Source: a virus
Taxonomy: Duplodnaviria > Caudoviricetes
Strand: one strand, 5' to 3'
Virus record (IMG/VR): IMGVR_UViG_3300027693_000024
Location: 1 to 25,220 of that record
Length of the DNA stretch: 25,220 nt
The first letter of the stretch is position 1. Every line of letters starts with the position of its first letter. Made by a program: the position numbers and the translations under genes. Shown here piece after piece: positions 4,054-5,621 of this stretch. Under the pieces are notes generated by a model, which was not told the DNA's origin, ran no database searches, and saw nothing but the letters and a program-made list of their open reading frames with translations.

Positions 4054-4501
4054 TATCTAGCGCAATTTTATAGCTTTTTATTTGGTATGGTGATATTTTT
4101 TCACCCCCAACATGGCGGTCACGAAGTTTTTTAGCCCATCTCTTATGGTCAATTTTGCCGTTTTCATCCTTTGGTGCTTTAAACGCTTTTGCAACGATTT
4201 CAGCCAACACACGGTCAACCAGTTCAATTGGTGCTTTTGAAGCGTCCAAAGCAATTGTGGTTGGCCTGGGTGCTTGTTTGCATAAACTCTTAAACTCAAT
4301 TAGGTTTGGGCAACGGTCTGGTAGATTTTTTAATGCCCAACCAATAACATTTAGGTTGTCAGAAAACATCCCAAGTTCATGCGCCCAGGCTGACTTCACT
4401 TCGTTTAACGGAATACCATTCCACTTATTTTTAAATTCAGAACCGTATGTCATAGACAAGCGATCAAACAAACGTTCAACAGCAGCAATTGATATTGTCA
4501 T
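4043..4501 (-). CDS. Replication-associated protein (position of helicase loader/P-like gene)
   Basis: 152 aa, ATGA-coupled to the initiator. The P-N-L-x-E-F-K-x-L-C motif is typical of genes following lambdoid initiators. Confidence 0.55.
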   Translation of the reverse strand: MTISIAAVERLFDRLSMTYGSEFKNKWNGIPLNEVKSAWAHELGMFSDNLNVIGWALKNLPDRCPNLIEFKSLCKQAPRPTTIALDASKAPIELVDRVLAEIVAKAFKAPKDENGKIDHKRWAKKLRDRHVGGEKISPYQIKSYKIALDMLS

Positions 4502-5247
4502 TTTTTTATCCTTAGTAAATTGTTTGTGGATTCCATTTCAAAAATATCTTTTTCAAATGTTGGCTTTCTACCAGTTGCGCTTTCAAACCACTCACGATTC
4601 TGCTTTACCCAAGGTTGTTCATTGTCTTTGCTTTCAGCTCGTTGCTTTCGTATCCAGTTGCGCCATGTGGCAAACCAATCAGCTTTGCGTTTGGCTTCAG
4701 AAATCCAATAATCTTTAAACCCGTCTGCAACTTGGTTGATATTAAGATCAGGTCTTTGCTCTTTTGCCCATATTGCCCATTCGTCAGGCAATTCCCAATC
4801 TTTCGATAATTGGCTAGTTTTTGTTTGGGCAGCTTTAGCTGCTAACTCTTTTAATGGTTCTTGTTTAGTGGTTAGTGGTTCTTGTTTAGGGTTATTTTGG
4901 GTTAGGCTTGGGTTAGGCTTGGGTATCCCATGGGTTTTTTTTGGCCTACCACCCTTGATTCCATTAAGTTTTTGCTTATCAAGAAAGCCATGATAATTAG
5001 CTATTTCAGCGTCTGCACGACGATTTATGTACCCGTTTTCGGTGTGTTCAAAGAACTCAACAAGTATCGCTTTTACAATTCCTGCTTCGATTCTTAATCT
5101 ACGGGAAACCCATGGGATATCAGTGGGTATTGGTGTTTCAGTGTCGTAATACATATCCAGAAGTCTGCGATATGTAATGTCCTCGATTGGGGACAAGTGC
5201 ATCGTGTGTTTGTTGTAATCACCGATGTTGAATTGATAATAGTGCAT
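4498..5247 (-). CDS. Phage replication initiator (DUF1376/YdaU-like N-terminus)
   Basis: MHYYQFNIGDY...T.HLS..E...YRRLLDMYY N-terminus, KGGRP followed by an iteron-encoded linker, and C-terminal F.DYW...K.DW.ATWRNW. Confidence 0.85.
   Translation of the reverse strand: MHYYQFNIGDYNKHTMHLSPIEDITYRRLLDMYYDTETPIPTDIPWVSRRLRIEAGIVKAILVEFFEHTENGYINRRADAEIANYHGFLDKQKLNGIKGGRPKKTHGIPKPNPSLTQNNPKQEPLTTKQEPLKELAAKAAQTKTSQLSKDWELPDEWAIWAKEQRPDLNINQVADGFKDYWISEAKRKADWFATWRNWIRKQRAESKDNEQPWVKQNREWFESATGRKPTFEKDIFEMESTNNLLRIKK
4855..4937. repeat. Iteron-like repeats, probable replication origin inside the initiator gene
   Basis: TGGTTCTTGTTTAG x2 and GGGTTAGGCTT x2, with GGGTT/GGGTA cores recurring at about 11-bp spacing. 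Confidence 0.7.
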
Positions 5248-5257
5248 CTCAAACCTT

Positions 5258-5348
5258 AAAAAAAAGGCTTCACCTGAACACGCAATTCCTTTTTTAAGGG
5301 AATCTGGCAGGACGAGCCAACACTCGCTGCGTATTCATGTGAAGCCTT
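5258..5348 (-). ncRNA. C4/P4-CI-like three-way-junction structured RNA with U8 tail
   Basis: Minus strand: 21-nt stalk AAGGCUUCACAUGAAUACGCA/UGCGUGUUCAGGUGAAGCCUU, hairpin GCGAG-UGUUGG-CUCGU, 8-nt linker CCUGCCAG, hairpin AUUCCCUU-AAAA-AAGGAAU, then U8. Most G-U pairs favour the minus strand. Confidence 0.7.
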
Positions 5349-5390
5349 GTTGGAATAATCACCCCCGCCAAAGGATGCACTAATTATCTA

Positions 5391-5621
5391 TTATTTCCTT
5401 TTTTTACGCAACTCAGGCCAAATAATTTTCCAGTTGTTGATGTTGTCTTGTCTAGTCCACTGGCCATCGGATAAACGTTCTAGCTCGCCAGCCATAAAAA
5501 CTAGCTTGTCTACAGGGATACCGTTAGCTTTCCATTGACTTACGGCTGGCACACTTACGCCGCACAGTCTGGCAACCTTTGTCGTACCGCCTAAAATTTG
5601 TATGATTTCTATGTTTTCCAT
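5391..5621 (-). CDS. Cro/YdaS-like HTH transcriptional regulator
   Basis: LGGTTKVARLCGVSVPAVSQW HTH and C-terminal IWPEL. First gene of the replication operon. Confidence 0.85.
   Translation of the reverse strand: MENIEIIQILGGTTKVARLCGVSVPAVSQWKANGIPVDKLVFMAGELERLSDGQWTRQDNINNWKIIWPELRKKRK

Follow-up and report, generated by a model that had tools for sequence, protein, structure and literature searches.

RNAs of the C4/CI type are processed immunity repressors of temperate phages. The C4 RNA of P1/P7 has a1/b1 and a2/b2 as its targets, the CI RNA of P4 has seqA/seqC, and processing of C4-type RNA by RNase P requires a tRNA-like 3' CCA. Plasmid antisense control also governs a replication initiator, as in the pT181 attenuator and in ColIb-P9/IncB. 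In ColIb-P9/IncB an intramolecular long-range pairing, the on state, competes with binding of the Inc RNA at a UUGGCG loop that has a U-turn role, and in plasmid antisense systems generally it is variable loops that give the incompatibility types. The regulator in the plasmid systems is an antisense RNA from the opposite strand, which has its own promoter and exerts negative feedback on copy number. Titles of references on ColIb-P9 antisense control name the rUUGGCG loop as a motif. For P4, CI is described as acting on seqA and as controlling the replication genes by premature termination (PMC4825925), while c4-2 has been described as probably a remote homolog of an RNA already known (PMC5737381).

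The locus analysed here lies in a 25.2-kb record of a tailed phage that is about 75% complete; the whole stretch of 25,220 nt is referred to as the window. On its minus strand a gap of 143 nt separates a Cro-like gene from a DUF1376 replication-initiator-type gene (Table 1). The genes for ERF, SSB and an exonuclease are divergently oriented, on the plus strand, with no CI gene in between, and the earlier observation that the phage has no visible CI protein holds for the window and for its complete relatives. One of these, MW202520 (33.6 kb, GenBank), has these genes in the same order and, after them, one annotated as replication protein P. Inside the initiator gene, near 4925-4855 (minus strand), we spotted by eye short tandem direct repeats, which resemble what would be expected for iterons of an in-gene origin. 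The window also encodes, at 808-1188, a DUF5856/Dps-like "starvation-inducible" protein that is likewise present in the three complete relatives scanned.

Table 1. Features of the leader locus in the window, followed by related loci and by RNAs that occupy the same slot (window coordinates unless a locus is named).
Feature	Position	Strand	Evidence or remark
Cro-like gene	5391..5621	-	P22_Cro, E 6.7e-10; 3' end holds -35 box of leader promoter
Predicted sigma-70-type promoter	5383..5411	-	TTGCGT 5411-5406, 17 nt, GATAAT 5388-5383; predicted start ~5377
5' hairpin P0, shows site a in loop	5360..5377	-	folding; 5/5 pairs compensatory, 90% of cells paired
Site a, core UUGGCG	5363..5372	-	complementary to linker a'
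Site b, CCAACA	5348..5353	-	complementary to loop b'; touches stalk without spacer
Stalk, 5' arm	5328..5348	-	folding and covariation
Hairpin P2 with loop b' UGUUGG (5322-5317)	5312..5327	-	folding and covariation
Single-stranded linker a' CCUGCCAGA	5303..5311	-	complementary to site a
Variable hairpin P3	5285..5303	-	folding and covariation
Stalk, 3' arm	5266..5284	-	folding and covariation
U8 tract directly 3' of stalk	5258..5265	-	predicted intrinsic terminator with branched loop
DUF1376 replication-initiator-type gene	4498..5247	-	PF07120, E 4e-21; PHROG primosomal protein; ATG (5247) ten bases past U8
Multi-copy record L493	1463-1577, 8640-8753, 9962-10076		different a site per copy
Multi-copy record L229	1766-1880, 3271-3382		different a site per copy
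Multi-copy record L522	9072-9186, 14059-14176		different a site per copy
int-alpA examples upstream of initiator, in L011-L080	L019:2247-2314, L023:598-665, L037:2909-2977, L072:2912-2978		
One-site sibling loci	L082:3240-3365, L083, L084:1875-1985; many of L527-L646		

An earlier note on this DNA had drawn, for the minus-strand transcript of the gap, a stalk, a hairpin with the loop UGUUGG, a linker, a second hairpin and a U8 tail, and all of its coordinates are correct. For the stalk with its two hairpins, the folding energy is -41.0 kcal/mol (z -6.0; 0/200 shuffles as good), and the whole leader, 5378-5258, gives z -4.8. Three features come in addition to those of the note: the loop of hairpin P0 holds site a, site b abuts the stalk, and a sigma-70-like promoter sits at the cro stop. 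This promoter, read from the sequence with 8/12 matches, falls under the threshold of our promoter scan, which did not list it, and its assignment was inferred from its position. As it overlaps the cro stop, sites a and b would be the first ~30 nt of the leader RNA. Across the family described below, a -10-like hexamer is found upstream in 109/125 members (17/125 control windows) and ends 10-12 nt ahead of site a in 94 of these 109, while TTG is present at -35 in 79/126 members versus 18/126 in the control. These family-wide signals just upstream of site a make it likely that the RNA starts at hairpin P0. At the other end, a GC-closed helix is followed at once by the U run, which predicts an intrinsic terminator; a simple terminator scan of the window did not list the site, since its loop is branched.

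We next asked how widespread the leader is. Eighty loci were chosen by their initiator protein, and 78 of them came with upstream DNA. By eye, 19 of the 78 carry this RNA (the 16 submitted were confirmed by the covariance model), 49 match a pattern like that of the int-alpA RNA motif (RF02996), and 10 match neither type. Six T are invariant at the 3' end of 17 initiator-selected sequences. Two pattern scans that fixed only the stalk ends, and that required 4-5 T after the stalk, then gave at least 220 matches including the window, at least 172 of them distinct. Among the matches listed, 126 fold into the stalk and are taken as family members, and 46 were dropped. Because a, b, a' and b' all lie outside the retrieval patterns, their pairing is an unbiased test.

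The outcome of this test is clear. In the window, CCAACA (5353-5348) is the exact complement of loop UGUUGG (5322-5317), and UUUGGCGGG (5372-5364) pairs with the linker (5311-5303) using G-U pairs, both as first pointed out in the earlier note. The covariation between loop or linker and the upstream sites, by which these pairings could be judged, is strong across the relatives for both a:a' and b:b'. With site a anchored by a fixed rule independent of complementarity, a:a' is paired at 7/7 positions in 123/126 members and b:b' at ≥5/6 in 125/126. When distinct sites are compared, cognate a:a' is perfect in 16/18 cases versus 17/306 non-cognate ones, and cognate b:b' is 6/6 Watson-Crick in 20/32 versus 6/992 at equal register freedom. 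The covariation alignment consists of 67 model matches and was fitted to the nested fold alone. In it, 98.5% of a:a' cells are paired, with both-side changes at 5/7 pairs, and 94.4% of b:b' cells, with both-side changes at 6/6 pairs. Together, 11/13 long-range pairs have changed on both sides and 96.6% of cells pair, compared to 16-47% in slid controls. Covariation is likewise seen in each of the nested helices (P0, stalk, P2, P3). Along a spanning tree of 76 types, changes on both sides preserve the pair in 74/75 cases for a and in 130/133 for b, while one-sided changes that break a pair number 5 for a and 32 for b, many of the latter at helix ends. One copy has even exchanged the near-invariant GG:CC core while keeping it paired. 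The 126 members comprise 58 a/b specificity types; within the a loop UUGG is invariant, and the commonest version of the loop is UUGGCG. The observed complementarities are not due to chance, and the covariation by itself defines a strongly covarying RNA family that is missing from Rfam 15.

The literature, searched mostly in open-access sources, yielded no description of the leader RNA. A survey lists the candidate DNAVirus_4653 (124 nt, 43 sequences, mostly freshwater, DUF1376 ≤25 bp downstream; Fremin 2023, PMC10690425), and its table rows for DNAVirus_4653 and DNAVirus_187 give no mechanism. By this table description, DNAVirus_4653 may be the leader RNA as an uncharacterised candidate, which could lower the novelty of the family. 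In GTDB genomes, searched with the pattern of subfamily 1 only, there were 65 pattern matches; the 4 loci confirmed by the model are all MAG contigs with mixed labels, and none lies in an isolate chromosome. Among RNA data sets, five runs came up, and the two inspected gave assembled contigs from relatives, which show neither transcript ends nor strand.

The anatomy of the leader is well kept, including its length of ~120 nt. The stalk measures 17-20 bp (~19 bp in the window) and has a central mismatch, site a begins 18-26 nt before it, and a run of ≥6 U is present in 113/126 members, although the pattern itself demanded only 4. What follows the leader is variable. The first gene, judged by its first residues, is of the DUF1376 type in 41/126 members. 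Among 39 first genes picked as different we found 12 initiator- or DnaD-like genes, 9 HNH or homing endonucleases, 1 helicase and 17 others or unknowns. HNH/homing endonuclease genes often stand directly 3' of the leader (L211, L217, L221, L227, L234, L248, L256, L271). Three records hold two or three leader copies in front of various early genes (Rha-like, helicase, HNH, unknown), and all 7 copies differ in site a within their record. The varied first genes and these multi-copy records show the unit to be a portable promoter-leader cassette that most often heads a replication operon. The idea that the RNA directly gates the initiator was right about the position, and too narrow about a cassette that is not initiator-specific. 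Two records, L001 and L002, carry an initiator 100% identical to that of the window, another a/b code, and a Cro of 86% identity, so that the leader appears to have been swapped as a module. More generally, where initiator N-termini are ≥90% identical, a or b differs in 28/31 pairs (which are not independent), including one 100% identical pair.

Other RNAs are found in the same slot between promoter and initiator. The int-alpA motif, which fills it by pattern in the 49 loci mentioned above, passed the Rfam gathering score in 4/8 submitted loci and is unrelated to the leader RNA in sequence and fold. It heads the DUF1376 initiator genes in most relatives, and a hairpin close to the ribosome-binding site often comes next. 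A third RNA, a one-site sibling of the leader, consists of a -10 box, a hairpin with site a, a long stalk with one or two hairpins, a bulge on the 3' side as in C4, and a U tract. The bulge is complementary to a, varies in step with it, and is sometimes identical to the P4 site. This sibling sits in the slot of the leader, after a Cro of 96-99% identity, is seen in most of 55 stalk-forming matches among 112 distinct ones, and has no Rfam match. With a bulge at the C4 position, it suggests a wider C4-like continuum. All three RNA types are interchangeable in the slot before the initiator. Just downstream of the sibling leader lies, in two loci (L084:2057-2182 and L573:543-668; 83 and 81 bits), the Betaproteobacteria-1 RNA (RF02932), and L242 has the same downstream sequence start after a two-site leader.

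How could such a leader work? We consider it somewhat more probable than an even chance that it is a self-generated antisense attenuator of the replication operon, which combines antitermination in cis with repression in trans. On the nascent RNA, a' and b' would emerge before the 3' arm of the stalk and pair back with a and b. This pairing would tether the 5' arm, keep the terminator helix at the U tract open and allow read-through into the initiator. In transcripts that miss the a:a'/b:b' fold, the stalk would close and synthesis would end at the U tract. The product would be an RNA of ~110-120 nt, or a trimmed stalk part, in which a' and b' would stay exposed. The terminated RNA would then capture a and b of emerging transcripts, leave their stalk free to close and so produce termination and more repressor. 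Initiator would be made in an early burst and then shut off, with a specificity for those phages or cassettes that share the a/b code. Unlike in the plasmid antisense systems, the regulator in this model is the aborted transcript itself, with only two short recognition helices.

Folding predictions are consistent with the cis part of this attenuator. For transcripts cut just after a', a:a' is predicted with P>0.5 in 116/126 members and b:b' in 69/126, while for transcripts that reach the U tract the lower stalk has a predicted P of ~1. By ViennaRNA, with pseudoknots and kinetics outside its model, the a:a' form lies a median of 15.6 kcal/mol above the terminator form, and hence would be a kinetic state. 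Geometry points in the same direction: with no spacer between b and a stalk of 17-20 bp (~50 angstrom), b:b' in cis and a closed lower stalk should be mutually exclusive, and a 5' arm that is tethered at both ends, with the 3' end held by the polymerase, would be hard to wind through a full turn. What the long-range pairs mark would thus be a fold that permits read-through or an interaction of two molecules, and most simply both.

The closest competitor, which we regard as unlikely, is a kinetic attenuator that works purely in cis. Here a:a' and b:b' within one nascent RNA would set a fixed or elongation-rate-dependent read-through, and the terminated RNA would be inert. Indeed, every complementary site lies within one transcript of ~120 nt, and the cis fold is predicted directly by folding. 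Second targets are also lacking, in agreement with the earlier note, which had found no downstream copy: none occurs within 300 nt downstream in 124 members, where the P4 control shows both copies; cognate a+b copies in the flanks (66 versus 25-71 non-cognate) and in 11 records (9 extra versus 6.1 expected, own opposite-strand matches removed) are not above chance; and L221 has one exact a+b copy, about chance level. Moreover, drift can bring about compensated sequence variety in a structure that acts in cis only. Once the RNA is complete, a' may remain within reach of site a on the same molecule; unless the 5' tail were cleaved off or bound, the repressor would then be muted, and we found no processing signal for removal of this tail. 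However, the cis-only reading leaves unexplained the rapid change of code between near-identical phages, the different codes among copies within one record, and the conserved hairpin display of a with its invariant UUGG start. Trans action is favoured by the 58 a/b types, by the type change in 28 of the 31 near-identical-initiator pairs and by the distinct types within records. By analogy, it is also supported by the invariant UUGG, which equals the start of the rUUGGCG loop named for ColIb-P9, and by P4 CI acting on seqA.

Control after transcription seems quite improbable to us. In that case the polymerase would mostly read through, and the folds would decide on RNase III-type cleavage of the stalk or on access to the ribosome-binding site. 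RNase III prefers a helix of about two turns, and the stalk is held at about this length, with its central mismatch. The first gene mostly starts 7-14 nt past the U run, and the 5' end of the window's leader can pair with its start region in folding. Pairing of the 5' end with the ribosome-binding site (anti-Shine-Dalgarno) is, however, not conserved in the family (11/125 versus 7.8% non-cognate), and the U run is preserved directly after the last stalk pair. An ATG occurs in the 5' part of the leader in only 14/126 members, which speaks against a leader peptide.

Slightly more improbable still is a classical C4/CI immunity RNA, which is processed by RNase P and maintains lysogeny via upstream and downstream copies of its targets. 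Two C4 features are present in the leader: a stalk that encloses two hairpins and a single-stranded segment, and a loop and a bulge-like segment that form the complements of, and covary with, two sites located upstream in the same transcript. As in P4 CI/C4 (RF01695, RF03163, RF01394), a hairpin loop displays the first site, and the core hexamers of the consensus are alike. There is a likeness between the a' linker and the bulge of the C4 consensus, UgCcAAC, and between site a and the loop of c4-a1b1, and the sibling in the same slot has its bulge at the C4 position. Hence the C4/CI topology that the earlier note had seen stands with respect to the two exposed segments and the nested order of the upstream sites, as in P4 CI/seqA, but the order of the hairpins is permuted. 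Aligned to P4, C4 runs stalk, minor hairpin, major hairpin, bulge, stalk, CCA, whereas the leader runs stalk, b' hairpin, a' linker, minor hairpin, stalk, U tract. Unlike in P4 CI/C4, the leader stalk is itself the predicted terminator, with a U tract and no CCA: CCA follows the stalk in 0/126 members, which leaves the proposed C4-like (RNase P-type) processing unsupported. Site b abuts the stalk, whereas the P4 sites lie ~150 nt upstream with a separate terminator-like hairpin in between, and P4 has second copies of both sites, which the leader family lacks.

The covariance models agree with this separation. The window gave no relevant Rfam match at gathering and no C4 match (RF01695, clan CL00128) at E≤10; 20 members gave none for C4 and c4-2 at E≤1; and neither the window nor the members matched C4, c4-a1b1, c4-2 or isrK. 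For c4-2 (RF02944) the missing match in the window and the 20 members is to be read beside a control search of 151 genomes of one phylum and 14 controls that had no c4-2 match either. In the P4 control, C4 scored 74.9 bits with isrK and c4-a1b1 upstream and both sites recurring downstream, and the covariance model of the leader had no match there. Membership in the C4/P4 CI group was rejected, as the leader lacks four of its defining features and neither model matches the other's RNA.

The carriers, too, differ from those of P4 CI and P1/P7 C4 in lacking lysogeny genes. Tyrosine integrase and S24 peptidase were found in 0/34 virus records searched, resolvase and AAA_31 (ParA) in 0/20, all with positive controls; the search set included 18 carriers that are ≥90% complete and MW202520, and divergent families could escape it. 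When 137 ORFs (50-320 aa) of three complete records were run against Pfam, Cro-like and HTH_39 helix-turn-helix proteins were all that turned up, although divergent repressors may escape. With no integrase, CI-type peptidase, resolvase or ParA in the carriers, the suggested immunity switch is doubtful in the lysogenic sense. The switch is more likely a timer or exclusion device, or one for a non-integrated carrier state.

Finally, an opposite-strand countertranscript as in plasmid copy control is the least probable regulator: a promoter-like site on the plus strand (5213-5240, 9/12) does point into the element, but opposite-strand -10-like hexamers in the stretch 8-26 nt past the U tract are as rare as in the control (20/125 versus 17/125), the downstream genes are non-homologous, the helices contain G-U pairs, which point to the mRNA strand, and the same-strand covariation of a:a' and b:b' would be left unexplained.

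Returning to the self-generated attenuator, we can tentatively, and at somewhat less than even chances, sketch a broader picture. The leaders would be portable, protein-free switches of early genes, each repressed by its own aborted transcript. Through positive feedback at the RNA level they would time or count genomes and shut off the initiator in phages without lysogeny genes, the dozens of orthogonal two-site codes would form incompatibility or exclusion groups between co-infecting phages, and the one-site siblings would provide the link to C4/CI. This would be the C4/CI logic compressed to ~120 nt, with promoter leader, antiterminator, terminator and repressor in one. In contrast to the temperate phages that carry C4/CI, the carriers are apparently non-integrating aquatic phages. 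If trans action holds, the family would provide, ready-made in nature, a library of 58 or more orthogonal transcription attenuators, and it would give these phages a way to time replication or to exclude relatives without a repressor protein.
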